DNA from: Rickettsiales bacterium (ex Bugula neritina AB1)
GTDB taxonomy: Bacteria > Pseudomonadota > Alphaproteobacteria > CAJXXZ01 > UBA1459
NCBI GenBank assembly: GCA_001730065.1
Contig: MDLE01000006.1
Location: 74,938 to 138,937, forward strand
Direction of reading: 5' to 3'
Length of the DNA stretch: 64,000 nt
A program made the translations under genes and the position numbers. The notes beneath the pieces are model-generated. The model saw only the letters and a list, made by a program, of their open reading frames with translations, was not told the origin of the DNA and did no database searches. Shown one piece after another: positions 16,722 through 63,420 of this stretch (position 1 is its first letter; each line of letters opens with the position of its first letter).

Positions 16722-16744
16722 CATAATTATAGTAATAAAATAGT

Positions 16745-20572: not shown

Positions 20573-20602
20573 AATATCAGTATAGTATAAATCTTTTAAA
20601 TA

Positions 20603-31947: not shown

Positions 31948-32563
31948 CTGTTTTTAAAATCTCATGGATTAATTTTGTTTTCCAATTAAATAAATTGTTA
32001 TATATACCTACCCAACTATTAATTTCAGAAAATATACTACGATTGTTATTAGGGCAATTTTCACATTTTTTTTGACGACATACTAAAAAAAAACTTGGAA
32101 AAGAAGTAATAGTAGGTAATCTTCTTTTGATATCCTTTAAAGAATTTATATTTTCTTCATAATTTATCATAAATACTAAAATTTTACGATGAGATTTTTT
32201 ATCATGGGAATTTTTATAATTTTTAAAATTTTTATTTAGTTCTTCTACTAGTATATCTAATATACTTTTATGCACTTCCTTTGTTTCACCTGTTTTTTTA
32301 TCTTCTTTTAAGGAAATATTAAAAGTACTTATTAATCTTCTACAAGGAGGACATTCATGATTTGTAAATATAAATAAAATAAATGGAAAAAGTATTCCTT
32401 GTGCATCAACTGTATTAAGATTGTCTAATGTTTTTGATTCTATTTTTGATACAGGTTGTTTCATAAATTCATCTATAATTAGTTTTTTTTCTTCTCTTGT
32501 CATAATAGGACTTGTAAAAGTAAAGTTATTAAAAAAAATAATTAGTAATATATAAAATTTCAT
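31922..32563 (-). CDS. secreted thioredoxin-fold protein with CPPC motif
   Basis: Signal peptide MKFYILLIIFFNNFTFTSP, FTNHECPPCRRL, later SFPSFFLV. Paralog of 4179..4616. Its 3' end overlaps the ybeY start by 26 nt. Confidence 0.55.
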   Translation of the reverse strand: MKFYILLIIFFNNFTFTSPIMTREEKKLIIDEFMKQPVSKIESKTLDNLNTVDAQGILFPFILFIFTNHECPPCRRLISTFNISLKEDKKTGETKEVHKSILDILVEELNKNFKNYKNSHDKKSHRKILVFMINYEENINSLKDIKRRLPTITSFPSFFLVCRQKKCENCPNNNRSIFSEINSWVGIYNNLFNWKTKLIHEILKTVESHQYEK

Positions 32564-32690: not shown

Positions 32691-33362
32691 ATGCAAATTA
32701 TATATGGTTATCAATCCGTCAAAGAGGCGTTAAATAATAAAAACAGAAAAAAATACAAGTTATTTTTATCCACAAATAAAATTTTTAAATATGATAATAT
32801 TATTAAAATCTCTAAAGAAAAAATGTATAAAATATGTCAATCTAATGATCATAATGGTGTAGCATTAGAAGTAGATCAATTTTGTCATTTTGCATCTTTA
32901 AAAGATATGGGTTCTAAAATTTTAATTATTAGTTCCATGGAAGATGTAGGTAATATGGGGGCTATTATAAGATCTGCGGCGGTCTTAGGATATAATGTTT
33001 TACTAGGAACAAAGAATACAAGTATTATTAATGGACGTATGGTAAAAAATGCTTCTGGTGCTTTTGAGTTTGTTAAAATACATATATGTAAAAATTTGTA
33101 TAGTAGTATTATTGAAATAAAAAACCAAGGTTATAAAATTTTTGCAATGAGTGAAAAATATTTAAATAAACCTTATAATAAAGAACAAAATTATAATAAA
33201 ATTGCTCTAATTATAGGTGGAGAATCACAAGGTATAGATTCACAACTTTTATCTAAAATAGATGTATTTTTTAAAATACCTGGTACAAAAAAATTTAATA
33301 CATTAAATGCTAGTGTTGCAGCTGCAATAGGTATGTTTAAATTTGGAAATATAAATTTATGA
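32691..33362 (+). CDS. SpoU/TrmH-family RNA 2'-O-methyltransferase (RlmB-like)
   Basis: IYGYQSVKEAL N-terminal substrate-binding domain. SPOUT motifs GNMGAIIRSA, IGGESQGI and LNASVAAAI. Confidence 0.8.
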   Translation: MQIIYGYQSVKEALNNKNRKKYKLFLSTNKIFKYDNIIKISKEKMYKICQSNDHNGVALEVDQFCHFASLKDMGSKILIISSMEDVGNMGAIIRSAAVLGYNVLLGTKNTSIINGRMVKNASGAFEFVKIHICKNLYSSIIEIKNQGYKIFAMSEKYLNKPYNKEQNYNKIALIIGGESQGIDSQLLSKIDVFFKIPGTKKFNTLNASVAAAIGMFKFGNINL

Positions 33363-35500
33363 AAATATGTATTTTATGTGGTGGTATATCTGATGAAAAA
33401 AATATCTCTATTAGTTCTGGAAGGAGTATGTATCATATTTTATCAAAAAATCATCAAGTAAATATTATTTTTATAAGTAAAGATTTAAAATTTTATTTTC
33501 TCAAAAAAAAATTTATTTATTCTAATACAACAGAAGATTTTGAATATTTTTATAAACAACAAAAAGAAATTTCTAACATTGTAGATACATTAAAAAAATA
33601 TCATAAAGTTTTCCCAATCTTACACGGTAATTTTGGAGAAGATGGACAAATACAAAAATTTCTTATTGACAATAATATTCCATATATTGGTGAAGACGTT
33701 AGTACTTATATAAATACTTTTTTAAAGAATAAAACTTTAGATTTATTGTGGAAAAATAAAATATGTAAACCTTGGTTTTCAGAAATATATGAAAATGATA
33801 ATCAATTACAAAATGCTATAAACAAATATAAAACTCTTTGTATAAAGCCTAATAATTCTGGATCATCAATAGGTGTAAAATTTGTAAATAACTTTAAAGA
33901 AGCAAAGGAACATATTAATTTTTTATTACAAAACGAGTACAATTATCAACCTTTAATAGAAGAAGTTCATAAAGGTAAAGAATTTGCAGTAACTGTTGTA
34001 GGGGGGAAGGTATTTACACCTATCGCAATCCTCACAAATGGTATTTTTGATTATTATAAAAAATATTTTCCTAGTAATAATGTAAAATTTTTATCTCCTC
34101 CACATTTTCCAAAGTTAATTATAGATACTATTAAATCCTCTTGTGAAAAAATTTATAAAATATTTAATTTTAAATATTTTTTACGTATTGATGGTATATA
34201 TATACAAAATAAAAAAGAAATTAGATTTACGGATTTAAATTCTATTCCTGGTTTTGAAATTAATAGTATATTTTTTAAGAATAAAAACCATTATAAAATC
34301 ATCAATCAAGTTATTTCTTCAGGTAATAGTCGAAAAATTTATAAAAATATTATAAATCTTTTCATTATATTTGGTGGTGAAAGTTCTGAAAAGAATATAT
34401 CTGTTCATAGTGGTATTAATGTATTTTTTAAATTATATGGTGATAAAAATTATAATATAAGAATTTTTTTTATGAAAAAAAAAAATTATATATATGAATT
34501 AGATTATGAGGAAGTATTTCAAAACTCTGTAAGAGATTTTACGTCTATTATTAATAATAAGAAACCTTTAAATTTAAATGATTTTATACTTTTGTGTAAA
34601 AAAAACTCTTGTATTGTATTTATTTGTCTTCATGGTGGTTTTGGAGAAAATGGTAAATTACAAAAAATTTTAGAAAATAATAAAATTGATTATACAGGTA
34701 GTTGTAGTAATATAAGTAAATTATGTATAGATAAATACAAATTAATTGAAATTTTACATAAAAATATAAAATGTAAAAGTATAAAGTTTTATAAAATTCC
34801 TACTATTTATATTAAAAATATTTATAAAATTTCCAACAATGAAATTATTGAAAACTGGAAAAAAATAAAAAATTATGGAGATATTATTATTAAACCTAAT
34901 AATGATGGGTGTTCTGTTGGTGTTTATAAAATTAAGAATTTAGAGGATTTACAATCTTATATTAATAAAGTACAAAATAATGAAATATTAATATATAATC
35001 AAGAAGATAATAGTGATATATATTTAAGTCAAATATCAAAAAAATATCTATTAATGGAATATATAAAAATTGATAAAATTGATTTTAAAAACCTTCAACA
35101 TATAAAAAAAACAGGATGGTTAGAATTAACAATTGGTACATTATCTCAAAAGGTATTTCATCCAACCGTTTCCATAAACAAAAATAACATACTTACAATT
35201 GAAGAAAAATTTTTATGTGGAGGCGGTACTAATATCTTGGTACCATCTCATATTATTAGTAATAGCCAAATAAAAAATATTAAAAATTTTTTTAAAAAAG
35301 TTATTAAATTTTTAGAAATTCACACTTATTGTCGTATTGATTTTTTTTATAATACAATTACTAATCAATTAGCAATCATAGAAATTAATACATTACCAGC
35401 TTTAACATTTGCAACTGTATTATTTCAACAGGCAATGAATAGTAACATAAATCCAATAAATTTCCTAAAAAAAATAATTTCTATTAGTAAAAAAGACTAA
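33359..35500 (+). CDS. ddl: tandem-fused D-alanine--D-alanine ligase (two complete Ddl modules in one polypeptide)
   Basis: Module 1: ILCGGISDEKNISISSG, LHGNFGEDGQIQ, IKPNNSGSSIGV, LRIDG, LNSIPG. Module 2, from about aa 330: IIFGGESSEKNISVHSG, LHGGFGENGKLQ, IKPNNDGCSVGV, CRIDF, IEINTLPA. Confidence 0.85.
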   Translation: MKICILCGGISDEKNISISSGRSMYHILSKNHQVNIIFISKDLKFYFLKKKFIYSNTTEDFEYFYKQQKEISNIVDTLKKYHKVFPILHGNFGEDGQIQKFLIDNNIPYIGEDVSTYINTFLKNKTLDLLWKNKICKPWFSEIYENDNQLQNAINKYKTLCIKPNNSGSSIGVKFVNNFKEAKEHINFLLQNEYNYQPLIEEVHKGKEFAVTVVGGKVFTPIAILTNGIFDYYKKYFPSNNVKFLSPPHFPKLIIDTIKSSCEKIYKIFNFKYFLRIDGIYIQNKKEIRFTDLNSIPGFEINSIFFKNKNHYKIINQVISSGNSRKIYKNIINLFIIFGGESSEKNISVHSGINVFFKLYGDKNYNIRIFFMKKKNYIYELDYEEVFQNSVRDFTSIINNKKPLNLNDFILLCKKNSCIVFICLHGGFGENGKLQKILENNKIDYTGSCSNISKLCIDKYKLIEILHKNIKCKSIKFYKIPTIYIKNIYKISNNEIIENWKKIKNYGDIIIKPNNDGCSVGVYKIKNLEDLQSYINKVQNNEILIYNQEDNSDIYLSQISKKYLLMEYIKIDKIDFKNLQHIKKTGWLELTIGTLSQKVFHPTVSINKNNILTIEEKFLCGGGTNILVPSHIISNSQIKNIKNFFKKVIKFLEIHTYCRIDFFYNTITNQLAIIEINTLPALTFATVLFQQAMNSNINPINFLKKIISISKKD

Positions 35501-38449: not shown

Positions 38450-39175
38450 ATGAATTATCTAAGATTTTTATTTTTTACATGTATTATAAATATAAATACT
38501 AATATAGAAGCATGTTGTTTTAATTTTAATGATATATGCTGTAAACCTCATTTTTTGTTTGGAATATGTATTTTTCAATTAATTTTTAATATTGTCATGA
38601 ATGTATTTAATTTATTAATAATAAAAGCAAATATGGTATTTTATATAATTAGTATTATATTCAATTTTATTTGGACATTTTTTGGTATGATTATGTTTTC
38701 TAATTACCCTACAAATAGTTCTAAAATAAAATGTTGTAAAATTTCTATAGTAATGTTACATTGTCTTCTACAAATTACTACATTAATTATGTATGTATTA
38801 TTTTTATATGATTTTTTCTCAAAAAATTTTTATTTTTATTTTTTGACGGGAGGAAATATTATATACGGATGGATAGGATTTTTTTGGGGTATAGATTTTA
38901 ATTGTGTAACGAATAATAAACAAGAAGTAAATTGTGGTATAATGGACAAATTATCATCATTTCCTCCTATAGAAGGTGATATGTTTATTATTGTATTATT
39001 GGTAATACAAATAATATTATTAATTTTAATGTTAATAGGTTTGGTACCTTATATAAGAGAGGAAAAAGCTACTGAAAGCAAAAATAGTAATAGCAATAAT
39101 AGTATACAATTAACGGGAATAATTGAAGACCCTAAAGACAAAACACAAAAAAAATCTTTATTAGAGAAAAATTAA
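38450..39175 (+). CDS. hypothetical polytopic membrane protein with Cys-Cys doublets
   Basis: 241 aa with several hydrophobic segments. CC doublets (EACCF, DICCK, IKCCK). Polar C-terminal tail. Confidence 0.45.
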   Translation: MNYLRFLFFTCIININTNIEACCFNFNDICCKPHFLFGICIFQLIFNIVMNVFNLLIIKANMVFYIISIIFNFIWTFFGMIMFSNYPTNSSKIKCCKISIVMLHCLLQITTLIMYVLFLYDFFSKNFYFYFLTGGNIIYGWIGFFWGIDFNCVTNNKQEVNCGIMDKLSSFPPIEGDMFIIVLLVIQIILLILMLIGLVPYIREEKATESKNSNSNNSIQLTGIIEDPKDKTQKKSLLEKN

Positions 39176-39386: not shown

Positions 39387-40739
39387 ATGAAAAAATTTTT
39401 AAATCTATTTAAATGTTTGTGTTGTATATGTTCCGTTAGTACAATGCGTGAGACTTCAAGTCAACAAGCAATATACAATTACATTTCAGGCGAAGAAATA
39501 AAAAACGCATTAGAATTTTATTTAATGGTTTTTTATAATTATGATAAAGAAGATCAAGAAAAAACAATGTATGAATTAGCTAAAAATGAATCTTTTCAAA
39601 GTTTGAAATTTTTCCTTCTAAACAAATATCCATTTTTAAAAGAAAAAGATCTAAAAAAAACAAATTATAATGTTATTTGCTTTATAAACAATAAATTAAA
39701 ACTTCTTGTTGAAAATGAAACACTTCATGTTTTAGAAGATTTTATATTTACAGAATCTTTAAACTCTTTAATAGAATTTTTTACTGAAAAGTTTTGTAAA
39801 TCTAAAAATACACCTTTTAATTTTATTGATTTTCATCTAAATGATGTTTATGAACATCCAAACAACAAAGTTTTAAATGATATGTTGCAAAATTTATTTT
39901 ACTCTCTTACAGATTTTAATTATCGAAAACATACTCCTCGAGCAAACAAAACAACACCAAAAAGTACAACTAATAAATTAGTAATGTATTTGTCACAAGT
40001 AAAAGATTCATTATTCTTGACACCATCTCCTTTATTTGCTTTATATGTTTCAAAACCTGAATTTAATAGATTACAAGAACAATTTTTGAAAATTATAAAA
40101 AATATATCACCATCTATTTCTTTTCAAGAATTAATAGATATGATGACAAGATTTTATATTGATCTTAAGTTATATAAAGAGGTAGAAAGAACTACATTTG
40201 TACCCTTACCATATGCTGCGCGAGAAGGCGATGTTGAAGAATCTAGTTATATAATTATGAATGCAATATTAATAGAAATGTTTACAAAATATTTTCAATA
40301 CTTTCCGGAAGAAAAAACAAATCCAGAGTATAGTGACATATTAAATATGTGTAAAAACTGGTTGGAAGTATTGAATCCTGAGTTCGTTTATTCTACATTA
40401 TTTCCATTTGATGCATTAAATAAAGAAAGATTGATGAAGAGCAATCAAGAAGATATAAATAGTATATACGAAAAAACATCAAACATGCTAGAAAATATGA
40501 AACATAATATTTCTTCTTATGAATATCATACTTATTTTAAAGAAAATAAGAAGATGGTAGAACTTAATAGGAAATTACAAAATGTCATGAATAATAAAGA
40601 TATCATGAATAATAAATTTAATAATAAAATTACATGGTTTAACTTTGGTGAAAATTATAATATAGATTCACATAGTAATAGAATTGAATTCAATGAGAAA
40701 TATTTACCTTTTTTAGATGAGCAAGAAAAAAAAAAATAA
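39387..40739 (+). CDS. hypothetical protein (Cys-rich signal/lipoprotein-like N-terminus)
   Basis: 450-aa ORF with N-terminus MKKFLNLFKCLCCICSVS. No recognisable family. Confidence 0.45.
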   Translation: MKKFLNLFKCLCCICSVSTMRETSSQQAIYNYISGEEIKNALEFYLMVFYNYDKEDQEKTMYELAKNESFQSLKFFLLNKYPFLKEKDLKKTNYNVICFINNKLKLLVENETLHVLEDFIFTESLNSLIEFFTEKFCKSKNTPFNFIDFHLNDVYEHPNNKVLNDMLQNLFYSLTDFNYRKHTPRANKTTPKSTTNKLVMYLSQVKDSLFLTPSPLFALYVSKPEFNRLQEQFLKIIKNISPSISFQELIDMMTRFYIDLKLYKEVERTTFVPLPYAAREGDVEESSYIIMNAILIEMFTKYFQYFPEEKTNPEYSDILNMCKNWLEVLNPEFVYSTLFPFDALNKERLMKSNQEDINSIYEKTSNMLENMKHNISSYEYHTYFKENKKMVELNRKLQNVMNNKDIMNNKFNNKITWFNFGENYNIDSHSNRIEFNEKYLPFLDEQEKKK

Positions 40740-43399: not shown

Positions 43400-44428
43400 T
43401 TATATTTTTTTTTCATTAAATAAATATTGAAATATATATAAACTTTCAAACTCTGGAGGACATTTCAAATAAGTATTCAGATTATTTATATTTAATTTTG
43501 TTTTAAGTTTTAAAAAATAATCAATTGGTTGAAGTAATTGTCCACCGTTAATAAAAATTGGTATATTATATTTATATTTTATGTCATGTTTTATAATATC
43601 AAAAGAATTAGACCAAATATTTTCTACAAAATTTATATTAATATCATAAATATCTTGCCTTTTCTTATCATACACAAGCCCTACTTGTTTTATTAATTGA
43701 TAAGCTTTATAAAAAGAAATTTGATATTTTTGGGTAATATATCTTACAAGATTATTTAAACCTAAATTAATTTTATAATACTCTTTTATTTTACCAAATT
43801 CTAATAATAAAACATCTATATGATAAAAATCTAAATTAATCAATATAAATGTATCCATAAATTTTAATAAATATTCTATAATAATACATATATTTATATG
43901 AATTCTTTTTATATCAATCAAAAATTTTTTAAAAATATTATTTATATTATTAAATATTAAATTAGGTACTTTAAAGTATTTTTTTGTAATTACTAAATTA
44001 TTTGTATATATATCAATAGGCTTGAAAACACTTATATTGTCACACAAATAATTAGTTTCTTCAAATAAAACAATATTTTTATCATTAGTATGTTTTTTTA
44101 CATACATTAATAAATGATTAATATGTGAAGTTTTTACAAAATTATTTACTAATAAGGATTTAGTCATATTAAAAAATTCTACATATAGACAATTAATAAT
44201 AACAATTACATCAATAATTTTTTCACCACTATCATATTCTATATGATAAATAAATTTTTGTAATTGTTGTTGAAATTCTTCAAAATTAATATGATTATTT
44301 ACTAATAATAAACTTTCTATTTTATAAGAGTTATAAACTTTATAGTTCTGCCACCAATTTTTTTGTAATAATATACTTTTAATATATAAATCATTAATTT
44401 CTACAATTAATACTACATCTTCATTCAT
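43400..44428 (-). CDS. FtsA-like actin-fold protein with degenerate nucleotide-binding motifs
   Basis: Colinear resemblance to FtsA: VVLIVEINDLYIKSILL (phosphate-1 position), FILINLDFYHIDVLLLEFGKI (phosphate-2 position, DxGGG lost), INLGLNNLVRYITQKYQISFYKAYQLIKQ, IPIFINGGQLLQPIDYF (adenosine motif position). 342 aa compared with about 420. Confidence 0.5.
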   Translation of the reverse strand: MNEDVVLIVEINDLYIKSILLQKNWWQNYKVYNSYKIESLLLVNNHINFEEFQQQLQKFIYHIEYDSGEKIIDVIVIINCLYVEFFNMTKSLLVNNFVKTSHINHLLMYVKKHTNDKNIVLFEETNYLCDNISVFKPIDIYTNNLVITKKYFKVPNLIFNNINNIFKKFLIDIKRIHINICIIIEYLLKFMDTFILINLDFYHIDVLLLEFGKIKEYYKINLGLNNLVRYITQKYQISFYKAYQLIKQVGLVYDKKRQDIYDININFVENIWSNSFDIIKHDIKYKYNIPIFINGGQLLQPIDYFLKLKTKLNINNLNTYLKCPPEFESLYIFQYLFNEKKI

Positions 44429-46755
44429 GTTATTATTTCTTTAATGTTATTTATTTCTTCTTTTAAAGAATAAATTTCTAATTCTATTTTATTTTTTATA
44501 TCTTCAGGAGGTGTTTGTTTATAAAGCTTATTTTCTAATAAAGATAATTTATTTTTCTGTTTATTGAAATATAATAATAGATTTTCATTATTAATATCTT
44601 TACAATAAATTTTTATATCATATATTTTTAAAAATTTACCTTCTTCTTCACTAATATTAATTTTCATAAATTCTAAAATATGTTTATATCTTATATTAGG
44701 TGATAACCATACATTAATTTTTAGATTATTTTTAAAACTTCGCATAATTTTTATAATTTTTATTAATATATCTATATAACTTATATCTATTTTTTTTATA
44801 CTAATATTAAAATATTCTTTATCAAACAAATTTTTTTTAAAAATTTTTGTATAGTTTTGTTCTACAAATTCTGGTATTAAAGGATAAAATAATTTTAATA
44901 ATCTCTCTAGTATAAACAATAAAGTATATTTAATTTGAAGATTTTTATGTACTTTACTAAATTCAATTAACCAATCACAATATTCTTTAAAGAAAAAATC
45001 TTCTAATTCTTCTATATATTTATGAATATTATAATTATCTAATAAAACTCTTTCAAGATTTTCTATTTTTTTAAATTTATTTAAAAAATATATAGAAATT
45101 TCATCATCAATATGTATATTCTTATTATCTATTTCAAACCCGTAATTTATTTCAATAAATTTTATAGCATTTTTTAGTTTGTTAATATTTTTTTTAGTGT
45201 TTTCTAAATCATGAATAGAAAATTTAATATTACCACTTACATATACTTTTGATAAAAGATTATATCTCAATATATCTACACTCCATTCTTTTATAATATC
45301 TAATGGATTAATAACATTATTAAGGGTTTTAGACATTTTATAACCTTTTTCATCTCTAACTAATTGATGAATAAATACATTTTTAAATGGTAATTCATTT
45401 GTAAGATTTGTAGTCATAAGTACCATACGAGCTACCCAAAAAAATATAATATCATAAGCGGTAACTAATGTAGTAGTTGGAAAAATACCTGTTTTACTAC
45501 CAAATGATAATGGCCATAAAGCGGAAGAAAACCATGTGTCTAAAATAAAATTTTCCTCATATATCTCTTCATTTGGGAATTGTTTTAATGCTTCTTCTTT
45601 TGTTTTTGCAAGAATAACTTCATTATTTTTTCTACGAAATATCGGCATTTTATGACCCCATATATTTTCTCTTGAAATACACCAGGGATTTAAACCCTCC
45701 AACCAATTTAAATAAGTATTTTTCCAGTAAGAAGGAAAAAATTTTAATTTATCTTCTTTTACAGCTTTTATAGCTTCTGCGGTATTTAAGTCTAAGTACC
45801 ATTGATTACGTAGTATTGTTTCTATAGGTTTTTGACTTTTTTCTCCTATAAATAATTTACGTTTATAATCTTCAATCTTTTCTAATTGATTAATTTTTTT
45901 CAATTCTTCAAGAATTTTTATTTTGACTTCTTGAATATTTAAATTTTTATAATTTTCTGGTACATTAATTGCTTTTAATTTTTCATTAAAAATATGTATT
46001 TTAGAAAAATTATATTCCTCACAAATATTAAAATCCGTTTCATCATATGTTGGTGTAAGTTTTAGAATACCTGTACCAAAATTATCATCCACATCCTTGT
46101 GATAAATAATAGGTATTTCACGATTAATAATAGGTATAAGTACATGTTTTCCTACTAAATTTTTATATTTTTTATTTACCGCTAATGCTACATCCGCAAA
46201 TATTGTTTCTGGACGAGTAGTAGCTATACTTATATATTCTGTACTATTTTTTATTTTATATTTTATATAATAAATATAATCATCTACTTCCTTTTGAATC
46301 ACTTCTAAATCCGACAAAGTTGTTTGAAAATAAGGATCCCAAAACACAACTTTTTCTTTTTCATATATTAGACCTTTATTATATAATTTAATAAAACTAT
46401 CCATAACAAAATTTTTATGATTTTCATCCATTGTGTACATGGTTTTTTCTTCATCTACATCAATTTTTAATAATTTCATTTGTTCATCAATTTTTTCTTT
46501 TGAATTATTCGCAAACTGATTAATAATTTTATATTTTTCATCTTTTGACAATTTATCTTTATTATTTTTTAAAGCAGAATATTCTGTAGATATACCACCA
46601 TGGTCATACCCTGGTAAAAGAATAGTTGTATAATTATTAAGTTTTGCAATTTTTCCAAAAAAATCTTCTATAAAAGCATCTAAACTATGCCCAAGATGTA
46701 AAGAACCACTAACATTAGGAGGGGGTAATAAAATAGAAAAAATTCTTTTTGACAT
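44425..46755 (-). CDS. valS: valine--tRNA ligase
   Basis: PPPNVSGSLHLGH (HIGH), KMSKTL (KMSKS), class Ia editing-domain blocks (TTRPETIFAD) and a C-terminal coiled coil. Confidence 0.95.
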   Translation of the reverse strand: MSKRIFSILLPPPNVSGSLHLGHSLDAFIEDFFGKIAKLNNYTTILLPGYDHGGISTEYSALKNNKDKLSKDEKYKIINQFANNSKEKIDEQMKLLKIDVDEEKTMYTMDENHKNFVMDSFIKLYNKGLIYEKEKVVFWDPYFQTTLSDLEVIQKEVDDYIYYIKYKIKNSTEYISIATTRPETIFADVALAVNKKYKNLVGKHVLIPIINREIPIIYHKDVDDNFGTGILKLTPTYDETDFNICEEYNFSKIHIFNEKLKAINVPENYKNLNIQEVKIKILEELKKINQLEKIEDYKRKLFIGEKSQKPIETILRNQWYLDLNTAEAIKAVKEDKLKFFPSYWKNTYLNWLEGLNPWCISRENIWGHKMPIFRRKNNEVILAKTKEEALKQFPNEEIYEENFILDTWFSSALWPLSFGSKTGIFPTTTLVTAYDIIFFWVARMVLMTTNLTNELPFKNVFIHQLVRDEKGYKMSKTLNNVINPLDIIKEWSVDILRYNLLSKVYVSGNIKFSIHDLENTKKNINKLKNAIKFIEINYGFEIDNKNIHIDDEISIYFLNKFKKIENLERVLLDNYNIHKYIEELEDFFFKEYCDWLIEFSKVHKNLQIKYTLLFILERLLKLFYPLIPEFVEQNYTKIFKKNLFDKEYFNISIKKIDISYIDILIKIIKIMRSFKNNLKINVWLSPNIRYKHILEFMKINISEEEGKFLKIYDIKIYCKDINNENLLLYFNKQKNKLSLLENKLYKQTPPEDIKNKIELEIYSLKEEINNIKEIIT

Positions 46756-46822: not shown

Positions 46823-47470
46823 TTAGTTTATTTGTAATAAAGTTTTTTTTGTATTGCATGACTCTTCTAATTTTTCTTCATTATTTATTTTTGAGAAATT
46901 ACAATATTTATTTTCTATGTAATATTTTATTGTATATATATTATTATTATTATTATAATTATTATTGAATTTTTGAATGTCATATATATTAGCAGCAGGT
47001 GGTAAATTAAATTCTGTAAATATATCTATCACATTATTCTTAGTATGAGTATTAAATAATCTATCAAAACAACTTTTTAAACATGATAAACATGTTTTGG
47101 GTTGAAAATTCATATATGACTTAAGGATCATTATATTATCTTGTTTTGTATAAATACATGTTATTAAAGAATGATTATCATTGAATTCTAAAACACAATT
47201 ATAATCACTACATTTACAAGAAATACTTATTTTAGGATCTTTTACCTTTAAATTAAAGTAATATGTTTTATTACAGATATCTTTTGTAAAATTGGTAATT
47301 TCTACTATATTATAAAATTCTCCAAAAAAAAAAAATTTATATTTTATTTCTTCTTCTGTATCAACAAATGGAAATACTATTTTGTTTTTATGATTAAATA
47401 TTCCCATAGGAATATAGGGATAACAATATATCAAGTTTAAAAAGATAAATATTTTTAAGTAACATTTCAT
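46823..47470 (-). CDS. secreted paralog family member 1 (most divergent)
   Basis: Signal peptide MKCYLKIFIFLNLIYC. Shares ...L(I/K)(T/V/I)C(I/N/D)Y... and C..C(F/L) motifs with the next four genes. Confidence 0.55.
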   Translation of the reverse strand: MKCYLKIFIFLNLIYCYPYIPMGIFNHKNKIVFPFVDTEEEIKYKFFFFGEFYNIVEITNFTKDICNKTYYFNLKVKDPKISISCKCSDYNCVLEFNDNHSLITCIYTKQDNIMILKSYMNFQPKTCLSCLKSCFDRLFNTHTKNNVIDIFTEFNLPPAANIYDIQKFNNNYNNNNNIYTIKYYIENKYCNFSKINNEEKLEESCNTKKTLLQIN

Positions 47471-47586
47471 ATTATATAAATTTTTATTTAATAAATTAAA
47501 AATCTATTAAATAAATTGTACAGAAGTTAATTATTTTTATTTTTTTTATTTTTTTTATTTCTGGAAAATATCCTACCTTAGTATTA

Positions 47587-48249
47587 TTAAAATAATTCTA
47601 ATCTTTCTTTTTCTTTTGCTGGTAAATATCCTTTTTTCGTGGAATTAAAATATTTATTTTCTATATACTCTTTAATTAAAAAATATTCTTTCAAAATACC
47701 ATTTTCTTTTTTTATATCTAAATTGTTATAATATTGAATAAATTTTTTGTTATCTATATGAGTTTTAAAATATTCACCTAAAAATAGTTTTGTATTTAAA
47801 TTATATTGTATAGTTTCATTTTTTTTAAAACATTTACATAATTTTTTAAAAAAAGGAACAGGTGGTGTAAAAAATACATCACCTATAATATTTTCATAAT
47901 TATAATTACATTTTACTTGCATATAACCATCTTGAAAACATAATAAAAAATCACTATCAGATTGTTTTATCACTTTCACTACAATATTTAAATTTTTTTT
48001 CGTAGTTAGTTCAAATTTATTCAAATCTACTTTACTTTTTATAAATTCATAAGGTAATTGATATCCAAAAATCACTACATAGAAAATGTTTTTATCTGTA
48101 TTATCAATTATTCCTTCAATCCATAAAGGATTGATTGATAAAGATTTAAACGTTTCTTCTTCGAAATTTTCATATATTAAATCTTCCTTTTGTGAAAAAC
48201 AAAAAAAATAAAAAAAAAAAATCTTTATTATTTTAAAACAAAACTTCAT
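47587..48249 (-). CDS. secreted paralog family member 2
   Basis: MKFCFKIIKIFFFYFFCFSQ signal, FELTT, MQVKCNYNY, KLCKCFKKN. Confidence 0.6.
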   Translation of the reverse strand: MKFCFKIIKIFFFYFFCFSQKEDLIYENFEEETFKSLSINPLWIEGIIDNTDKNIFYVVIFGYQLPYEFIKSKVDLNKFELTTKKNLNIVVKVIKQSDSDFLLCFQDGYMQVKCNYNYENIIGDVFFTPPVPFFKKLCKCFKKNETIQYNLNTKLFLGEYFKTHIDNKKFIQYYNNLDIKKENGILKEYFLIKEYIENKYFNSTKKGYLPAKEKERLELF

Positions 48250-48302
48250 AAATATAGATATAATAAAATAAATTAAAAATTTATTAATTAAATTTTAAAA
48301 TA

Positions 48303-49166
48303 TTAAACATAACATAAATCATATTTTTCTTTTAAAGGTGTTGTTATTTGATTTGTTTCTTTTTTATTATGATGCTTATCTATTATATAAGCTTTTATTC
48401 GTTTATATTCTTTAATAGTTTTATTTAAATATTGATCTTTTTGTATATAATGATCATTTTTATATTTTTGATTTTTGTTGTTTATTTCCACTTCTCTTAA
48501 TTCTATGTCATTATGTAAGTTTTTATATTCTTCATCCATTCTATCTTTTGTTATCTCATTTATTCTATTAGTATTTGTTTGGATATAAAATACATTTTCT
48601 GTATTATTCCTAAAAAAATTACAAATTTTTTGTAAAAGATTTGGTTTTTCTGTAAAGTTTATTTCACCATTAATATTTAGATGCGATTGTTGTTGAAAAT
48701 AATTACATTTTATTCGAAGGGTAGAATCATCAAAAATAAGAACAATATTATTATCTTCTTTAATTTGAATTTGAATATTTATATTTTTATTTTCAGGTGT
48801 AGTAAGTTCAAATCCATTCTCCAGTTTATCTATTTTAAATGGATATTGTAATTTCAATCCTAAAATATATACATAAATATTTTGAGATGTTTCACTTTTT
48901 AGTTTATTAAATAAATCAAAAGGATTAAATATTATATTTTCATCATTTTCATCATTTTCATCATTTTCATCATTTTCATCATTTTTATGATGATATGATA
49001 TAATAAAAGGAATTATTACTAATTTAGGATTGAAGTATTTTGGTAAAAAAAAAACTCTATTGGGTTTTTTTTCTTCATTGAGATTTTTTTGAGGTGAAGA
49101 AGAACAAAAACAAAAAAAAAATAAAAAAATCTTTATTGTTTTAAAAATTTTAAAATAACACTTCAT
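48303..49166 (-). CDS. secreted paralog family member 3 (carries an NDE repeat)
   Basis: MKCYFKIFKTIKIFLFFFCFCSS signal, FELTT, LRIKCNYFQ, KICNFFRNN. About 50 nt of upstream DNA is near-identical to that of member 2. Confidence 0.6.
   Translation of the reverse strand: MKCYFKIFKTIKIFLFFFCFCSSSPQKNLNEEKKPNRVFFLPKYFNPKLVIIPFIISYHHKNDENDENDENDENDENIIFNPFDLFNKLKSETSQNIYVYILGLKLQYPFKIDKLENGFELTTPENKNINIQIQIKEDNNIVLIFDDSTLRIKCNYFQQQSHLNINGEINFTEKPNLLQKICNFFRNNTENVFYIQTNTNRINEITKDRMDEEYKNLHNDIELREVEINNKNQKYKNDHYIQKDQYLNKTIKEYKRIKAYIIDKHHNKKETNQITTPLKEKYDLCYV
48941..48985 (-). repeat. 5 x 9-bp microsatellite (CATCATTTT on the plus strand) encoding (NDE)5
   Basis: Five perfect tandem units read directly. 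In frame, inside paralog 3. Confidence 0.95.
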
Positions 49167-49215
49167 AAGTATAAATATAATAAAATAAATTAAAAATTTA
49201 TTAATTAAATATTTT

Positions 49216-49944
49216 CTACATATCTTTTAATTCTAATTGCATATTATCTTTCGTCGTTTTTTTATTATATATTGTTTTATTATTAATATATTCATTATTT
49301 AGATATTTTTTTATTGATGTATTATTATTATATCTAGTATTCTTTTCTTTTATACCATTACTTGTTAGATGCATAAATAAGGATACATTTGTGTTAAAAT
49401 TCACTTTTTTATTCTTATTCGGAAAAAAACATCCACAAAATCTTTCCAAGATAGATAAAATATCTAAAAACTCTACCTCACCTTTAATATTTGAATGAGT
49501 AGGATAGATATAATAATTACAATATATTTTCAAGTTAGAATCGTAAAATTTTAATTTAAAGAAACAATCACATTTTGTAGTTTTATAATCTTCATTGTCA
49601 TGATACTCAATAAAAATTATAGTATCAGGATAATTTTCTGTAGTAAGTTTTAATGTATTAGGAATATTATTGAATAAATCTACAAAAAATGAAATAGGTA
49701 ATTTACAACCCATAATAACCGCATAAAATCTATCATTATCATAATTTTTTTTAAAATTACCAGTAAATAAATTATAATTATCATGATTATTATGATTATC
49801 ACTATCACAATAAATTAAGTAAAAAGGAACTATTGGTATAATTGTTTCTTTGTGTTTGTGATTTAAATATTCTTTTATAGATTTTTGTGTAAAACAACAA
49901 ATAAAAATAAATAAAAATCTTATTGTATTAAAATAAATCTTCAT
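49216..49944 (-). CDS. secreted paralog family member 4
   Basis: MKIYFNTIRFLFIFICCFTQKSIKEYL, LKLTT, LKIYCNYYI, ERFCGCFFPNKNK. Closest to member 5. Confidence 0.6.
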   Translation of the reverse strand: MKIYFNTIRFLFIFICCFTQKSIKEYLNHKHKETIIPIVPFYLIYCDSDNHNNHDNYNLFTGNFKKNYDNDRFYAVIMGCKLPISFFVDLFNNIPNTLKLTTENYPDTIIFIEYHDNEDYKTTKCDCFFKLKFYDSNLKIYCNYYIYPTHSNIKGEVEFLDILSILERFCGCFFPNKNKKVNFNTNVSLFMHLTSNGIKEKNTRYNNNTSIKKYLNNEYINNKTIYNKKTTKDNMQLELKDM

Positions 49945-50009
49945 AATTATTAATAATAATTTAATAAATTAAAATTTTATTAAATAATATCAAGACAATA
50001 GTTATTTTG

Positions 50010-50732
50010 TCATCTTTCTGATGCTAATGTATGATAATTACTCTGATTTTCTATAGGATTATTATTATAATTAATATTTGTTTTATAATTTTTCTTTACA
50101 TATTCTATAATAGGTTTATATTGATTTGGTTTGAAATTTTTATCCATTTTTTCTTTTATATATTCATTTGTATAATCTATAAATCTAGGTGTCTTTGTGT
50201 CAGAATTTACATCTTTATTCATAAATAAAGATATATTTGTTTTGAAACTCATTTCTTTATTTTTATTCGGAAAAAAACATCCACAAAATCTTTCAAAAAT
50301 AGATAAAGTATTTGAAAAGTTAACGGTACCTTTAATAGTGGAACTCCACTGACCTATACAATAATCACATATTATTTTTAATCTATTATCATAAAATGTT
50401 AATCGAAAATTGAGGGGTAAATATTTTTCATTATCTATTTCTTTATTATTTTCATATTCAATAAAAATTTTAGTATTAGGATGATTTAACATATTAAATG
50501 AAAATTGATAATTATTAAATTTCTCTAATACAAGTGGTATGAACAATTCACAACCCATAATAACTAAATGATATATCTCGTTATCATCTATTTTAATAAG
50601 TAATCTATTATTTGAATTAATCAAATAAAAAGGAAAAATTTTAACTTCCGTATTACTTAAATATTCTTTTATAGATTTTTGTGTAAAACAAAAAATAAAC
50701 AAAAATCCTATTATATTAAAATAAATCTTCAT
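50010..50732 (-). CDS. secreted paralog family member 5
   Basis: MKIYFNIIGFLFIFCFTQKSIKEYL, LKIICDYCI, ERFCGCFFPNKNK. The 39 nt upstream of the ATG are identical to those upstream of member 4. Confidence 0.6.
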   Translation of the reverse strand: MKIYFNIIGFLFIFCFTQKSIKEYLSNTEVKIFPFYLINSNNRLLIKIDDNEIYHLVIMGCELFIPLVLEKFNNYQFSFNMLNHPNTKIFIEYENNKEIDNEKYLPLNFRLTFYDNRLKIICDYCIGQWSSTIKGTVNFSNTLSIFERFCGCFFPNKNKEMSFKTNISLFMNKDVNSDTKTPRFIDYTNEYIKEKMDKNFKPNQYKPIIEYVKKNYKTNINYNNNPIENQSNYHTLASER

Positions 50733-50771
50733 AATTATTAATAATAATTTAATAAATTAAAATTTTATTAA

Positions 50772-51167
50772 TTACATATCATTAAAGATGCTATGTAATA
50801 TACTTTTTATAAACTCTTTACCAGTGGGATGAATAAAAATAGTTATTTTTATATATTCACTAATAATTATTTTATAATCAGTTTTATTTAATAGAAATTC
50901 ACTAATAGCCGTATATAAAATAATACTTAAAAGTTTATCTATAGAACCTTCTTGTCTTTTTTGATATTTTCCACAGATTTTCAATATTTTATCTTTTTGT
51001 ATAGTACAGTTATTTATAATACTATTACTTAAATTTTCATCAAAATTATTAATCTTTAAAGATTCCATAAATAATATTTTAATATCTTTGCTTGTTTTTG
51101 TAATATACTGATTATAATTAAAGTATACGGCATAAAATCTACTAAAAATTCTTTTATAACTATTCAT
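50772..51167 (-). CDS. nusB: transcription antitermination factor NusB
   Basis: 131 aa. The layout R.FSRFYAVYFNY ... SIDKLLSIILYTAISEFLL ... IIISEYIKI... EFIKSILHSI follows NusB helices (R..a.q.LY ... iLr.a.yEl ... vvInEav.la... fvNgvL). Confidence 0.6.
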   Translation of the reverse strand: MNSYKRIFSRFYAVYFNYNQYITKTSKDIKILFMESLKINNFDENLSNSIINNCTIQKDKILKICGKYQKRQEGSIDKLLSIILYTAISEFLLNKTDYKIIISEYIKITIFIHPTGKEFIKSILHSIFNDM

Positions 51168-53449: not shown

Positions 53450-53482
53450 TTTTAATATCTATATATGTTATATTTCAAACAA

Positions 53483-53591
53483 GTGGCGGTTTTATAGTTT
53501 ATCGTGTACTACCCTAATCCATCTCGAACTAGGCAGTAAAAGCGATAAATGCTTATGATACTGGGTTTCTGGGAAAGTGAGTACTGCCATG
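53483..53591 (+). rRNA. rrf: 5S ribosomal RNA (not linked to a 23S gene)
   Basis: Helix I TGGCGGT/ACTGCCA, conserved loop region CCATCTCGAACTAGGCAGTAAAAGC (compare E. coli CCATGCCGAACTCAGAAGTGAAACG), and the 3' domain GATACTGGG...CTGGGAAAGTGAGTAC. Confidence 0.85.
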
Positions 53592-53766
53592 TATTTGCAA
53601 TTTATTTAAATTATAATATAATTTATTTTTATATTTAATTACTTACTTGAATATATTTATCAATTATTTATTAAATAAATTTTGATTATAAATTATCAAT
53701 AATTTTTAAGAAAACTTGATTTTAAAATATTATAACTATAGTTTTCATATATTTGTACAACTATAA

Positions 53767-57323: not shown

Positions 57324-58517
57324 TTATTTTTTATTATAAAAAAATATATGTTTTTTTAATTTTAATTTTATTATTTCTTCGGAATGTTTACTAGATAATC
57401 GACAATATTCTTCATGACGCTTTATATACGTTTTATTAATTAAAGTCTCTTTACTTTTATAATAATTATTAATAATTTGTTTTAATAGACTTATTTCTTT
57501 TTCTATTTGTTTAAGACGTTTTTCTGAAAAATTTTCACTAATTTTATGTTCTTCAAAGAATATTTTTAAATTTTTGTACATCTTTTGTTTTTCAAATTTA
57601 TGAATAATCTTTTTTTGTTTAAAATTATAAATAGTACGAAATATTTCTCCTAAATCAAAATTAACACTAAAATTAATCATAGAATTAGATAAATCTACTC
57701 CACTTCTTATATTCAAAGGTACATTATTAGTAATATAATTATATTTAAAATTTTTAGGAGTTTTTATATGAATTACAGGTATTGATTCTTTTAAAGCAAT
57801 AAGTGCATCCTCTTGTTTTTCTAAATAATTACAAAAATTATGTAGTTTATCTATAGTATTTTCATTAATTACACCATTAGAATCAATGATTATTAGTGCA
57901 ATTTTTTCTTCAGTATTTAATATGTTATCTATAGCATTTATAATATATTCATATAGTAAATATATTTCTTCAATATTTTCTAAATCTTCTTCTTCTAATA
58001 AAATTTTAAAATTTTTTTGTTTTTTTATTAATTCTTTTAAAAGAAAATCTAAAAATTTATAATTATTCCTAATATTTGATACTAACTCTATTATATTAAT
58101 TAAAAGTTTATGGAATTTTAAAATATTTTCATTAATATTTATATCCATATTCCACATAAGTTCTTTATATTCGTTGCTTTTTTGAATTTTTTTTAAAATT
58201 GTTAATTCTAATATATTAGATATGTTCCAGTTAATAGAAAAATTATAACTGTCCGTCAGGCTATTTTGCCATGTTAATTCTGGTATAAAATTTATAAAAT
58301 CATTTTGTTTTAACAATAAAATTTTAATTTTATTTTTAAATTCTATAAGACTTATATCTACATACTCTTTCGATAATTTCAAAACATTTATAAAATCCTT
58401 ATCTTGAGTTTTAAAATTTTTATTATATTTTTCTAAATATTTTTCTGCTTCTTTGAAGATAAATACTTTTTCATCACCATAAATCTTCAAAAAAAAATAT
58501 AATATTATTAGATGCAT
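57324..58517 (-). CDS. hypothetical secreted protein; weak TolC-like two-repeat layout
   Basis: Signal-like N-terminus. Long helical Lys/Glu-rich stretches are interrupted twice by short beta-like blocks (IPELTWQNSLTDSYNFSINWNISNI; VPLNIRSGVDLSNSMINFSVNFDLGEI). The resemblance is of pattern only. Confidence 0.3.
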   Translation of the reverse strand: MHLIILYFFLKIYGDEKVFIFKEAEKYLEKYNKNFKTQDKDFINVLKLSKEYVDISLIEFKNKIKILLLKQNDFINFIPELTWQNSLTDSYNFSINWNISNILELTILKKIQKSNEYKELMWNMDININENILKFHKLLINIIELVSNIRNNYKFLDFLLKELIKKQKNFKILLEEEDLENIEEIYLLYEYIINAIDNILNTEEKIALIIIDSNGVINENTIDKLHNFCNYLEKQEDALIALKESIPVIHIKTPKNFKYNYITNNVPLNIRSGVDLSNSMINFSVNFDLGEIFRTIYNFKQKKIIHKFEKQKMYKNLKIFFEEHKISENFSEKRLKQIEKEISLLKQIINNYYKSKETLINKTYIKRHEEYCRLSSKHSEEIIKLKLKKHIFFYNKK

Positions 58518-59604: not shown

Positions 59605-60447
59605 CTATTTATTATCCACATCTAAAGCCTCTTCAAACTGATATGTAGGTAGTTTTTTTGTATTTTTATGACAAGTGGGACAGTAATCAAAAAATGTAAA
59701 ATAAGACTTAAGAATACAATACTTATCAAATTGTAAAAGAACTAATCCTAAAAATTCTCCATGATCACATTTATAACAGGAACTATACATAAAAACATCA
59801 TTACCACACCCATCATATTCTATATATTGTATATTTAGTTTACCTATTATTTCTCCCATTGTATATACTATATTACGATTTAAATACATTTCATCATTTG
59901 TGACACTACCTTTTTTAGACAATAAATAAAACATTTTATAAATGCTATATTCCTTAAAATATGGGGGTATATTTGTCATCAAATAATAATCAGGTGCAAA
60001 ATTTATATTTATAGATTCATTAAAAACTTGAAATAAAGTAATTAATCTATTAAATAAACTTTCAGTTGTAAAATATTTTTGTTGATTGTTTCTATTTTCC
60101 ACTAACATCATACCGAACAAATTATTCTTGTTAGGTGCTTGAAAAAACAAAACTTCTAGAAGAATATTTAAATATTTTTTTTTAAAAATAAAAAATGGTT
60201 TACCTTTGATAGAAGAATTATTACTATATTTACCTGTAGCAATAATTTTGTCAAACATATCTAATTTTACTACGGTAGGAATTATAGATTTGTTTTTCTC
60301 TTTTAAAACTATAATTTTTGTATCACAATTTTGATAAAAAACCCCAATAACATGATATAAATCTTGATATTTCTTAAAAGATTGTCCTATTTTCAAAGTG
60401 GATATAGACAATACAAAATAACTAGTTATTAAGATTTTTTTTATCAT
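59605..60447 (-). CDS. hypothetical protein with signal peptide and C-terminal Cys cluster
   Basis: 280 aa. N-terminus ILITSYFVLSIS. C-terminal CGND...CYKCDHGE...CPTCH. Its start overlaps the rpmF 3' end by 26 nt. Confidence 0.45.
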   Translation of the reverse strand: MIKKILITSYFVLSISTLKIGQSFKKYQDLYHVIGVFYQNCDTKIIVLKEKNKSIIPTVVKLDMFDKIIATGKYSNNSSIKGKPFFIFKKKYLNILLEVLFFQAPNKNNLFGMMLVENRNNQQKYFTTESLFNRLITLFQVFNESININFAPDYYLMTNIPPYFKEYSIYKMFYLLSKKGSVTNDEMYLNRNIVYTMGEIIGKLNIQYIEYDGCGNDVFMYSSCYKCDHGEFLGLVLLQFDKYCILKSYFTFFDYCPTCHKNTKKLPTYQFEEALDVDNK

Positions 60448-60775: not shown

Positions 60776-61567
60776 ATGAATTGTATAATAAAATTATTTC
60801 TTTTATCTATTCAAATATTTTATCCTCAAAGTAATAGTATGCCTTTAACATGTTGTGTTTGTGATGAATGTTGTGGTTGTGTTTGTGATCATATAGTAAG
60901 ATACGAGTTAAAACAACAATGTTGTAATTATAGTAGTGCTATATGTTGTTTTGGTGTAATAGCATGTTGTAATACTAGAATATTTAAATGTTTAGGTTGG
61001 GCGGTATTTAATACGGTTATAATTATAGATTTTATTTCTAATATATCAGTATTTATTTTAAAAATGATTAACTTGAGTAATTTACCTACTATTAATAATT
61101 TATCACCCATATATGAAATATGTTTAGGAAATACGTTAATAGGAAAAATTAATTTTACGGTATTTGCTACTCTTGTATTTTTGAGTAAAAACTTTATACT
61201 TTTTTCTAATTTTTTTCGTGGTAAAGATATAAATGGTTTTCTAAACAACAATTGTTGTTGTAAAGATATAATGTTAAAAATTTTCACCTGTTGTAATATT
61301 GATAATAATAATCATAATTCCCATAGATATATACTAACAACTTTTATTTATTTTTTAATATCTTTATTTTTTTGTATAGGAGATATGAATCTCATCTATA
61401 ATATGTATAACAATACAAATAGTTGTAACTCTACAGTAGTTTCTTCAATTTCTTTAATGGGGTTAACGGAATATGGTAGTATTATGATTTTTTTTGGAAT
61501 AAATAGTATTTTAACATTAATATTTTCTTTTCTACAATTATTTTTTATGATTACCACACGTTTTTAA
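60776..61567 (+). CDS. hypothetical polytopic membrane protein extremely rich in Cys-Cys doublets
   Basis: 263 aa with TCCVCDECCGCVCDH, QQCCN, AICCF, IACCN, NNCCCK and FTCCN, plus several hydrophobic segments. Confidence 0.5.
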   Translation: MNCIIKLFLLSIQIFYPQSNSMPLTCCVCDECCGCVCDHIVRYELKQQCCNYSSAICCFGVIACCNTRIFKCLGWAVFNTVIIIDFISNISVFILKMINLSNLPTINNLSPIYEICLGNTLIGKINFTVFATLVFLSKNFILFSNFFRGKDINGFLNNNCCCKDIMLKIFTCCNIDNNNHNSHRYILTTFIYFLISLFFCIGDMNLIYNMYNNTNSCNSTVVSSISLMGLTEYGSIMIFFGINSILTLIFSFLQLFFMITTRF

Positions 61568-63165: not shown

Positions 63166-63270
63166 TTTTTATGGAATTTCCGTTTTGTATAACAATACTA
63201 TTGTACAGAAAAAATTTACAATTATCAACTTGTTTTTAAAAAATATTTTTGTTATAATAGTAAAAAATAT

Positions 63271-63342
63271 GTCTCCATCGTCTAGTAGTTAGGACAACAG
63301 GCTTTCAATCTGTTAACACGGGTGCAATTCCCGTTGGAGATG
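63271..63342 (+). tRNA. tRNA-Glu (anticodon UUC)
   Basis: Acceptor GTCTCCA/TGGAGAT, D-arm GTCT-AGTAGTTA-GGAC, anticodon arm ACAGG-CTTTCAA-TCTGT, T-arm ACGGG-TGCAATT-CCCGT. Confidence 0.85.
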
Positions 63343-63420
63343 ATAATAATTTTTTTTTTTTAAAAATTTTGAACTATGAGTTTTATTTTTGTAAAAATTA
63401 TTGTACAATTATAATTGTTT

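Follow-up and report, generated by a model that had tools for sequence, protein, structure and literature searches.

Why should a bacterium with a much reduced genome keep, side by side between nusB and valS, five genes for similar proteins that match no known family? The genes lie in a 64-kb stretch of DNA (the window, as we call this whole stretch below) from a 177,484-bp contig of Rickettsiales bacterium (ex Bugula neritina AB1). An earlier reading, made from the sequence alone and without database searches (the sequence-only reading), took them for a locally expanding, diverging secreted family. We suggest, giving the proposal about an even chance of being right, that they encode envelope proteins of an orphan family, Sec-exported, rich in beta structure and containing Cys, which was tandem-duplicated in a reduced, Holosporaceae-like intracellular bacterium. 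The array, the paralogy of its genes, a DNA box that stands before each of them and the orphan status of the family are directly observed in the sequence.

The array consists of five consecutive minus-strand open reading frames (ORFs) of 215, 220, 287, 242 and 240 aa, here called m1 to m5 in that order, within 46823-50774, with exactly the lengths that had been given for them; their neighbours are nusB, tRNA-His and valS. Coding sequence makes up 92% of this region, G+C content is 17.9%, and the intergenic spacers measure 39 (nusB-m5), 65, 49, 53, 116 and 67 nt. The off-frames contain about one stop per 9-14 codons, and in 500 shuffles of the region no stop-free stretch reached the length of any of the five ORFs (the longest per shuffle was at most 171 codons, with a mean of 71). 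With lengths beyond all 500 shuffles, the ORFs are therefore maintained genes and not accidents of composition. The m2, m4 and m5 proteins are identical to GenBank entries annotated as hypothetical (Table 1). The GenBank model of m1 begins at Met22 (194 aa), cutting off the signal peptide, and we prefer the 215-aa model because of its box spacing and its family-type N-terminus, MKCYLKIF; the corrected start gives m1 back its signal peptide.

That m2 to m5 are paralogs is clear. In composition-corrected BLASTP, m4 and m5 score 144 bits with 46% identity over 226 aa, followed by m2-m3 (70 bits), m2-m4 (56), m3-m4 (50), m2-m5 (43) and m3-m5 (35). When the signal peptides are removed, local alignments among these four proteins still give z-scores of 7.8-31.8, and none of 500 shuffles reaches the observed score, so the sharing of motifs exceeds what AT bias and low complexity would produce by chance. 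The closest relative of a gene is the adjacent one (m5 with m4, m3 with m2), and m1 is the outlier. Among the landmarks noted earlier, the block ERFCGCFFPNKNK is indeed identical in m4 and m5, and L.I.C(N/D)Y holds for m2 to m5 (m1 has LITCIY), but (F/L)(E/K)LTT occurs only in m2, m3 and m4. The C-terminal thirds had been described as unrelated; this does not stand, as a motif I-K-x-Y-I-x-N-K-Y-x-N, predicted to be helical, recurs in the tails of all members.

The membership of m1 needs separate argument. It scores 23 bits against m3 in BLASTP, hhalign against the m2-m5 profile gives a probability of 2% (E 0.022), the HMMER profile of the family does not detect it, and its shuffle z-scores are 5.1 (m2), 3.5 (m3), 3.4 (m4) and -0.4 (m5). 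Its weak matches are colinear with the family landmarks (the MKCY.KIF start, L.F.D...I.C.Y, C..C and I-K-x-Y-I-E-N-K-Y), a 44-nt block in the 3' part of the gene is 82% identical to m2 (46888-46931 versus 47634-47677), and the AlphaFold2 (AF2) model of m1 has the same layout as that of the family. Because of the colinear motifs, the DNA block, the predicted layout and the upstream box, we count m1 as a probable, very divergent fifth member, marginal on protein similarity alone. Neither a search by hidden Markov model (HMM) over six-frame ORFs nor all-against-all BLASTP found further members in the 64-kb window, and by the latter the array is the only recent paralog expansion there. The annotated proteins of the AB1 bin contain no further copy either, though about half of the genome may be missing from it.

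A further common feature of the five genes lies upstream of them. A 20-nt box, TAATAAATTTTTAATTTATT, precedes all five ATGs with at most 1 mismatch and ends 17-19 nt before each; five matches at this threshold compare with 0.04 expected, no shuffle reached five, and none occurs elsewhere in the 64 kb, where every other match, needing 3 mismatches, is at chance level. It is dyad-symmetric (TAATAAA-N7-TTTATTA). When the five upstream regions are aligned, an invariant core appears, beyond which the 5' conservation is specific to the pairs m4/m5 and m2/m3. Within these pairs the upstream identity seen earlier was borne out, the 39 nt before the ATG that are identical in m4 and m5 being the entire nusB-m5 spacer and the near-identical DNA of m2 and m3 forming the longer block listed in Table 1. 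That the genes took their upstream DNA along in duplication, or retained it, holds more strongly than had been claimed, the box being common to all five. In m4 and m5, codons for identical residues at degenerate positions differ in 1 of 22 cases within the first 27 codons versus 20 of 84 over the remainder, and because of this difference their 5' ends are seen to be kept alike at the nucleotide level, through constraint, conversion or both. Conversion from sister to sister does not explain the box of m1, which has one mismatch before coding DNA that is almost unalignable.

As to what the box does, a reading as an RNA hairpin or terminator was rejected, since its folding is no better than that of shuffles (z -1.6 to +0.8); the gene strand also showed no G+C-rich terminator. 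The absence of both folding excess and terminator makes a promoter or operator acting at the DNA level likelier than an RNA structure. A scan for sigma-70-like promoters found 66 versus 59.8 expected, which is no enrichment and is uninformative in DNA of 18% GC. A metagenome scan for the box followed by the spacer and ATGAAR gave one match only (JAEEGK010002493.1, 7460-7504), which we rejected as chance: it is intergenic, in an AT-rich eukaryotic contig with prolyl-oligopeptidase-like and NSUN-like genes.

The proteins themselves look like exported ones. All five start with MK, a short positive n-region, followed by a Phe/Ile/Leu-rich h-region of 12-15 residues that ends in an invariant Cys at position 15-19, confirming the Cys-containing signal-like N-termini; by a hydropathy heuristic, the maximum over 10 residues is 2.2-3.1 within the first 30 residues of each, and there is no later segment resembling a transmembrane one. 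The M23 peptidase, a periplasmic enzyme encoded in the same window, has the same Phe-rich type of signal (MFRLFLLFFFS). Read by eye, C-F-S before QK (m2), C-F-T before QK (m4, m5) and C-S-S-S before P (m3) agree loosely with the -3/-1 rule, no such site being evident in m1, and C-F-(S/T) before Q-K fits a putative signal peptidase I site with the Cys at -3. Cys makes up 3.2% of the family versus 1.4% of the other proteins of the window, and three Cys are invariant in all five: that at the signal end, that of I-x-C-(N/D)-Y and that of (F/I/L)-C-x-(C/F)-F. The enrichment and the two mature Cys fit an extracytoplasmic, possibly disulfide-bonded protein.

The predicted layout is a signal, a core of about 100 residues forming an amphipathic beta-meander, and then a polar tail. 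AF2, run on the shallow family alignment of four sequences (mean predicted local distance difference test score, pLDDT, 51; predicted template modelling score 0.49), models a helix at the N-terminus, then a meander of 8-9 beta strands and lastly a disordered tail, whose single helix covers the conserved I-K-x-Y-(I/L)-x-N-x-Y motif; the core, at about residues 70-160, is all beta with a pLDDT of 62-83. With five sequences the mean pLDDT was 43.5. Hydropathy averaged over the family shows a period-2 alternation in 7-8 segments, a sign of amphipathic strands that does not depend on AF2. The top look-alikes returned by Foldseek, none of them significant, are small up-and-down barrels or sheets such as streptavidin, LpqH and the coat proteins of ssRNA phages.

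Searches for relatives agreed with the earlier statement that no known family could be recognised. Pfam and NCBIfam gave no family at E ≤ 1 for any of the five proteins except one chance-level match, PADLOC and PHROGs gave no match for any, and a PDB sequence search with the m2-m5 profile found none. A word-seeded profile search of 5.8 billion proteins, made once without m1 and once including it and at E up to 1, brought up nothing but the proteins of the locus itself, and an exhaustive HMM scan of 1.84 billion representative proteins self matches only. Scans of genome contigs with the family profile and, for synteny, with valyl-tRNA synthetase gave no match, the AB1 bin evidently not being a GTDB representative. 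The profile and structure searches proposed earlier have thus been made, with neither a hit in the known-family libraries nor a significant Foldseek neighbour. On this evidence the family appears to be an orphan, lineage-restricted and new, of a kind already familiar. The exact m3 sequence is missing from both protein collections, although m2, m4 and m5 are there; by accession numbering m3 is expected to be AB836_01300 / OED45514, and it may be annotated with another start or be absent from the collections.

We infer a mechanism in which each gene would be a separate cistron behind the same dyad box, the box serving as a shared promoter or operator that gives common control. The proteins would be exported by Sec/YidC and then cleaved by signal peptidase I after S/T, lepB and yidC both being present in the window. 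The mature part would fold into 7-8 amphipathic beta strands arranged as a meander of about 100 residues, with two more invariant Cys that may form a disulfide; an Asn/Lys-rich tail, predicted to be disordered, with one conserved helix motif would follow. As neighbouring copies are closest relatives, the array probably grew by unequal crossing-over; the mature parts would then have diverged fast, with the 5' control region and signal peptide held near unchanged by constraint, by 5' gene conversion or by both. A role at the symbiont envelope or the host interface would be the most plausible use of such proteins, as pure inference. Of the earlier description, then, what holds is that the family is duplicated, strongly diverged and equipped with signal-like N-termini; secretion past the periplasm, exposure to the host and diversifying selection are conjectural.

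The selection question was approached through the ratio of nonsynonymous to synonymous divergence (dN/dS), as had been proposed. The NG86 values among the paralogs are 0.68-1.10, but they are not interpretable. Codon usage is about 90% A/T-ending, and codons for identical residues differ by 15-23% in every pair, whatever the protein distance; this uniform difference marks compositional equilibrium, so that dS is saturated and the ratio inflated. We therefore reject paralog dN/dS as evidence of selection. Within their signal-peptide codons m2 and m3 have poly-T runs of 10-12 nt (coding sense; poly-A on the plus strand), m1 and m3 have such runs early in the mature part, and m3 has in addition the 9-nt repeat of Table 1. 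The homopolymers do not of themselves point to phase variation, as such tracts are not specific to the locus: the window has 132 A/T tracts of ≥8 nt and 28 of ≥10 nt, including some in dnaE, rnc and lon. No recombinase lies near the array, and all copies have the same orientation. At about 2.3x coverage, some homopolymer tract lengths are possibly uncertain in the assembly, and transcriptional slippage may matter in the AB1 bacterium.

Two alternatives concern where in the envelope the proteins reside; they refine the location and do not contradict an exported beta-rich family. In one, the proteins are integral to the outer membrane, 8-stranded beta-barrels with a polar tail inserted by the beta-barrel assembly machinery and forming a variable coat like that of OMP-1/P28/Msp2 and WSP. 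The tandem-array layout fits such barrels, and so do the amphipathic strands, 7-9 in number and 5-11 residues long, whose hydropathy strictly keeps period 2, and the best, non-significant Foldseek neighbours, which are 8-stranded up-and-down barrels (streptavidin and avidins, target-normalised TM 0.38-0.46) and include one match named 'outer membrane protein beta-barrel'; moreover, the final residue of the last conserved strand, (V/I)-x-F-x-T-N-(V/I)-S-L-F, is aromatic, as in a beta-signal. However, 50-100 more residues follow that strand, several strands have too few residues to cross a membrane, the Cys content and the invariant Cys within strands are unusual for outer-membrane barrels, no Pfam match to Surface_Ag_2 or any outer-membrane protein family was obtained, the amphipathic alternation would suit a soluble barrel or sandwich just as well, and confidence in the model is low. 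We regard this placement as unlikely. Equally unlikely, in our estimate, is that the proteins are lipoproteins whose invariant signal Cys becomes the diacylated +1 residue after signal peptidase II cleavage and tethers the beta domain to the membrane. The constancy of that Cys in all five despite varying flanks speaks for it, a degenerate lipobox is conceivable in a proteome with 2.1% Ala and 4.0% Gly, and one weak Foldseek neighbour, LpqH, is a mycobacterial lipoprotein. Yet the check for a canonical lipobox ([LVI][ASTVI][GAS]C) came out negative in all five proteins: the residues before the Cys are LIY, YFF, FFF, FIC and FIF, so that position -1 is F, Y or C in place of G, A or S and -2 is also bulky. 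The genes lgt, lspA and lnt were not found among the ORFs of the 64-kb window, and the site before Q-K discussed above fits signal peptidase I with the Cys at -3.

Other alternatives question the function. Somewhat less probable still than either placement is that the duplicates are drifting under relaxed constraint with little or no function, their 5' ends conserved by gene conversion between neighbouring repeats. The dN/dS values, identities down to 24-46% with m1 barely recognisable, low-complexity tails of variable length, the variable-number tandem repeat of 9 nt in m3 and the extension of 5'-block identity to synonymous sites, as conversion predicts, are what such drift would give. Against it, the frames of all five genes, 215-287 codons long, have remained open in DNA whose off-frames have not, every copy keeps the beta-strand pattern and the C-terminal helix motif along with three Cys, the box persists even in m1, and the ratios are inflated by saturation; moreover, reduced genomes have a strong deletion bias, and useless DNA is normally deleted from them. 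An improbable but more far-reaching possibility is that the genes encode surface proteins, Cys-rich and disulfide-linked, of a fold family not seen before, and that these make up the variable coat of a Holosporaceae-like parasite. The box would then be an operator, and a regulator dedicated to it would switch or coordinate expression of the paralogs. This would amount to a system of antigenic or host-range variation invented de novo in a genome of about 0.4-0.9 Mb, with paralog choice made, for example, at an infectious stage. Least probable by far is the suggestion of the sequence-only reading that this is an immunity-type array, which would here mean periplasmic immunity proteins against a polymorphic toxin or a toxin of a type VI secretion system (T6SS). 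Tandem diverged small paralogs are typical of immunity genes, and related Holosporaceae keep a T6SS in modified form together with genes for effectors and immunity (bioRxiv 10.1101/719211), but the array is flanked by nusB and valS with no toxin, Rhs, VgrG or secretion gene adjoining, the proteins match nothing in PADLOC or the Pfam immunity families, and at 215-287 aa with long disordered tails they exceed most immunity proteins.

The case for exported envelope proteins has weak points of its own. The lack of sigma-70-like enrichment leaves a promoter role of the box conjectural, and gene conversion alone could conserve the box. The cleavage sites were read by eye with the -3/-1 rule, and m1 has no C-F-(S/T)-Q-K site. 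Confidence in the structure is low at the mean pLDDT values given above, and Foldseek against PDB and BFVD returned nothing at E ≤ 0.001 (best E 0.087 and 0.028). Protein divergence is so high that it may reflect relaxed constraint, and the family is known from genes alone, in one assembly.

Table 1. Positions in the 64-kb window of the array, its neighbours and its repeated elements, and of two export-related genes.
Feature	Positions	Strand	Remarks
nusB	50772-51167	minus	Pfam NusB and TIGR01951
Conserved 5' block of m5 (upstream DNA and signal-peptide codons)	50691-50774	minus	84 nt, 95% identical to 49903-49986
Box of m5, TAATAAAATTTTAATTTATT	50751-50770	minus	18 nt before ATG; starts 1 nt past nusB stop codon
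m5, 240 aa, first gene of array	50010-50732	minus	AB836_01310, OED45516.1, hypothetical protein
Conserved 5' block of m4	49903-49986	minus	Partner of 50691-50774
Box of m4	49963-49982	minus	18 nt before ATG
m4, 242 aa, sister of m5 (46% identity)	49216-49944	minus	AB836_01305, OED45515.1
Internal block of m4, encodes ERFCGCFFPNKNK	49369-49495	minus	83% DNA identity to 50217-50343 of m5; core 93-97%
Conserved 5' block of m3	49147-49213	minus	67 nt, 93% identical to 48230-48296
Box of m3, TAATAAATTTTTAATTTATT	49184-49203	minus	17 nt before ATG
m3, 287 aa, sister of m2 (34% identity)	48303-49166	minus	
Perfect in-frame 9-nt tandem repeat of m3, 5.6 copies	48936-48985	minus	Asn-Asp-Glu repeats between signal peptide and predicted beta core
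Conserved 5' block of m2	48230-48296	minus	Partner of 49147-49213
Box of m2	48267-48286	minus	17 nt before ATG
m2, 220 aa	47587-48249	minus	AB836_01295, OED45513.1
Box of m1, TAATAGATTTTTAATTTATT	47490-47509	minus	19 nt before ATG; palindrome reaches 15 bp per arm
m1, 215 aa, probable, very divergent fifth member	46823-47470	minus	GenBank AB836_01290
valS	44425-46755	minus	
LepB (signal peptidase I)	22815-23699		PF10502, 7e-38
YidC-like protein	20994-22430		

The source is the AB1_rickettsiales bin of Miller et al. (2016), which comprises 8 contigs and 436 kb at 21.6% GC, has about 2.3x k-mer coverage and 48.9% marker completeness, was seen in a single ovicell sample and encodes the ADP/ATP carrier TlcA (PMC5041132). 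The organism is inferred to be intracellular (PMC5041132), and the description of the genome as otherwise minimal agrees with this and with its reduction. A 2025 review places the AB1 bacterium within the fast-evolving Holosporaceae, beside the endosymbionts of diplonemids (PMC11909080). Outside the array, the window has a gene content typical of reduced genomes (DnaE, Lon, ClpX, RuvAB, PriA, NusA and aminoacyl-tRNA synthetases) and keeps a peptidoglycan and division set (MurA, Mur ligases, Ddl, MurJ, FtsW, FtsQ and an M23 peptidase); as peptidoglycan genes are retained, a periplasm therefore exists. SecYEG and SecA are not among the genes of the 64 kb. A thioredoxin-like ORF at 4179-4616 was considered as a periplasmic Dsb protein and rejected: it has a CPPC site but no signal peptide and is therefore not a periplasmic Dsb.

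Orphan, putatively exported protein makes up a large part of the window. At least nine more ORFs have signal-like N-termini (2122-2772, 3641-4255, 11224-12066, 14989-16584, 27830-29458, 31922-32563, 39387-40739, 57324-58517 and 59605-60447); eight of the nine have no Pfam match, 27830-29458 has only implausible short-segment matches (HALZ, UvsW.1), and none is related to the five-gene family by HMM or all-against-all BLASTP. Two orphan multi-pass membrane ORFs on the plus strand have cysteine-cluster N-termini, 38450-39175 with EACCFNFNDICCKPH and 60776-61567 with LTCCVCDECCGCVCDH, and show no detectable relationship to each other. A solitary 5S rRNA gene (53482-53592, plus strand; 49.7 bits versus a gathering score of 38) follows a CorC-like ORF that ends at 53449 and has no adjoining 23S or 16S gene, whereas a contiguous 16S-23S-5S operon is given for the bin in the genome paper (PMC5041132). 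The 713-aa ORF at 33359-35500 (plus strand), with two D-Ala-D-Ala ligase N-domains and three C-domain stretches, resembles a Ddl-Ddl fusion or internal duplication within an otherwise minimal genome. The gene for tRNA-Arg(ACG) at 20603-20676 (minus strand) overlaps the 5' end of the longest DnaE ORF (17375-20629, minus strand, TTG start), so the true dnaE start therefore lies further downstream. Two tRNA-Glu genes are kept, at 16650-16722 and 63270-63343 (both plus strand), with anticodons CTC and TTC.

The practical value of the locus is limited by its origin in a single low-coverage metagenomic bin whose host is the bryozoan itself or an associated protist, and orphan secreted families are common in reduced host-dependent genomes. 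The array is, nevertheless, the only recent expansion in 64 kb of an assembly of about 436 kb and has no relatives among about 15 billion public proteins, and together with its kept cis-element it offers a defined candidate, open to testing, for proteins of the envelope or of host interaction in a poorly known group, the fast-evolving Holosporaceae. The most useful outputs are the shared 20-nt box, the corrected start of m1 and the finding that paralog dN/dS is unusable in the AB1 genome.

Several known systems invite comparison. Like the OMP-1/P28/P44-Msp2 and WSP proteins of Anaplasmataceae (PF01617, Surface_Ag_2), the AB1 family forms a tandem same-strand array whose diverged paralogs, about 25-30 kDa in size, have signal peptides and predicted beta-rich cores, in a small obligate intracellular alphaproteobacterial genome with an otherwise non-redundant gene set. 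Unlike them, it is Cys-rich, has long polar tails and shows no sequence or profile similarity to those proteins; each copy has its own start and box, and no organisation into pseudogene cassettes or an expression site is seen. In the Vlp, Vsp, Vsa and Vpma clusters of Mycoplasma, 5' non-coding DNA and signal-peptide codons are near identical, mature parts diverge and C-termini are of low complexity or repetitive. The AB1 array shares these features, the C-terminal one included, but has no canonical lipobox, adjacent recombinase or inversion sites; its box contains no long hypermutable tract (only T4-T5), and its proteins have a conserved, predicted folded core and do not consist mostly of repeats. 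The Erp/OspE-F-Elp lipoprotein genes of Borrelia, scattered on plasmid prophages, are co-regulated paralogs with an 'upstream homology box' that carries operator-like sequence and the leader peptide, and the regulators BpaB, BpuR and EbfC bind there. As in those families, divergent genes for putatively exported proteins share conserved upstream DNA in AB1, although here the genes stand in tandem on the chromosome, behind a box of only about 20-27 nt.

Closest in phylogenetic neighbourhood and lifestyle are Cytomitobacter and Nesciobacter/Ignotibacter, which likewise have many unannotated proteins, many of them with signal peptides (bioRxiv 10.1101/719211; PMC11909080); in relatives with 0.6-Mb genomes, 22-50% of the proteins are hypothetical and 44-106 are predicted to carry signal peptides (bioRxiv 10.1101/719211), and an orphan secreted family is therefore expected here and not surprising. 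Unlike the AB1 bacterium, however, these relatives yielded no homolog of the family in protein searches, and a five-copy tandem expansion with a shared box is not described for reduced Holosporaceae in the literature examined. Reduced intracellular bacteria lose nearly all redundancy, and families that are still amplified in them therefore point to needs at the host interface. While it belongs to none of the systems compared, the AB1 array resembles the exported-protein arrays of host-restricted bacteria.

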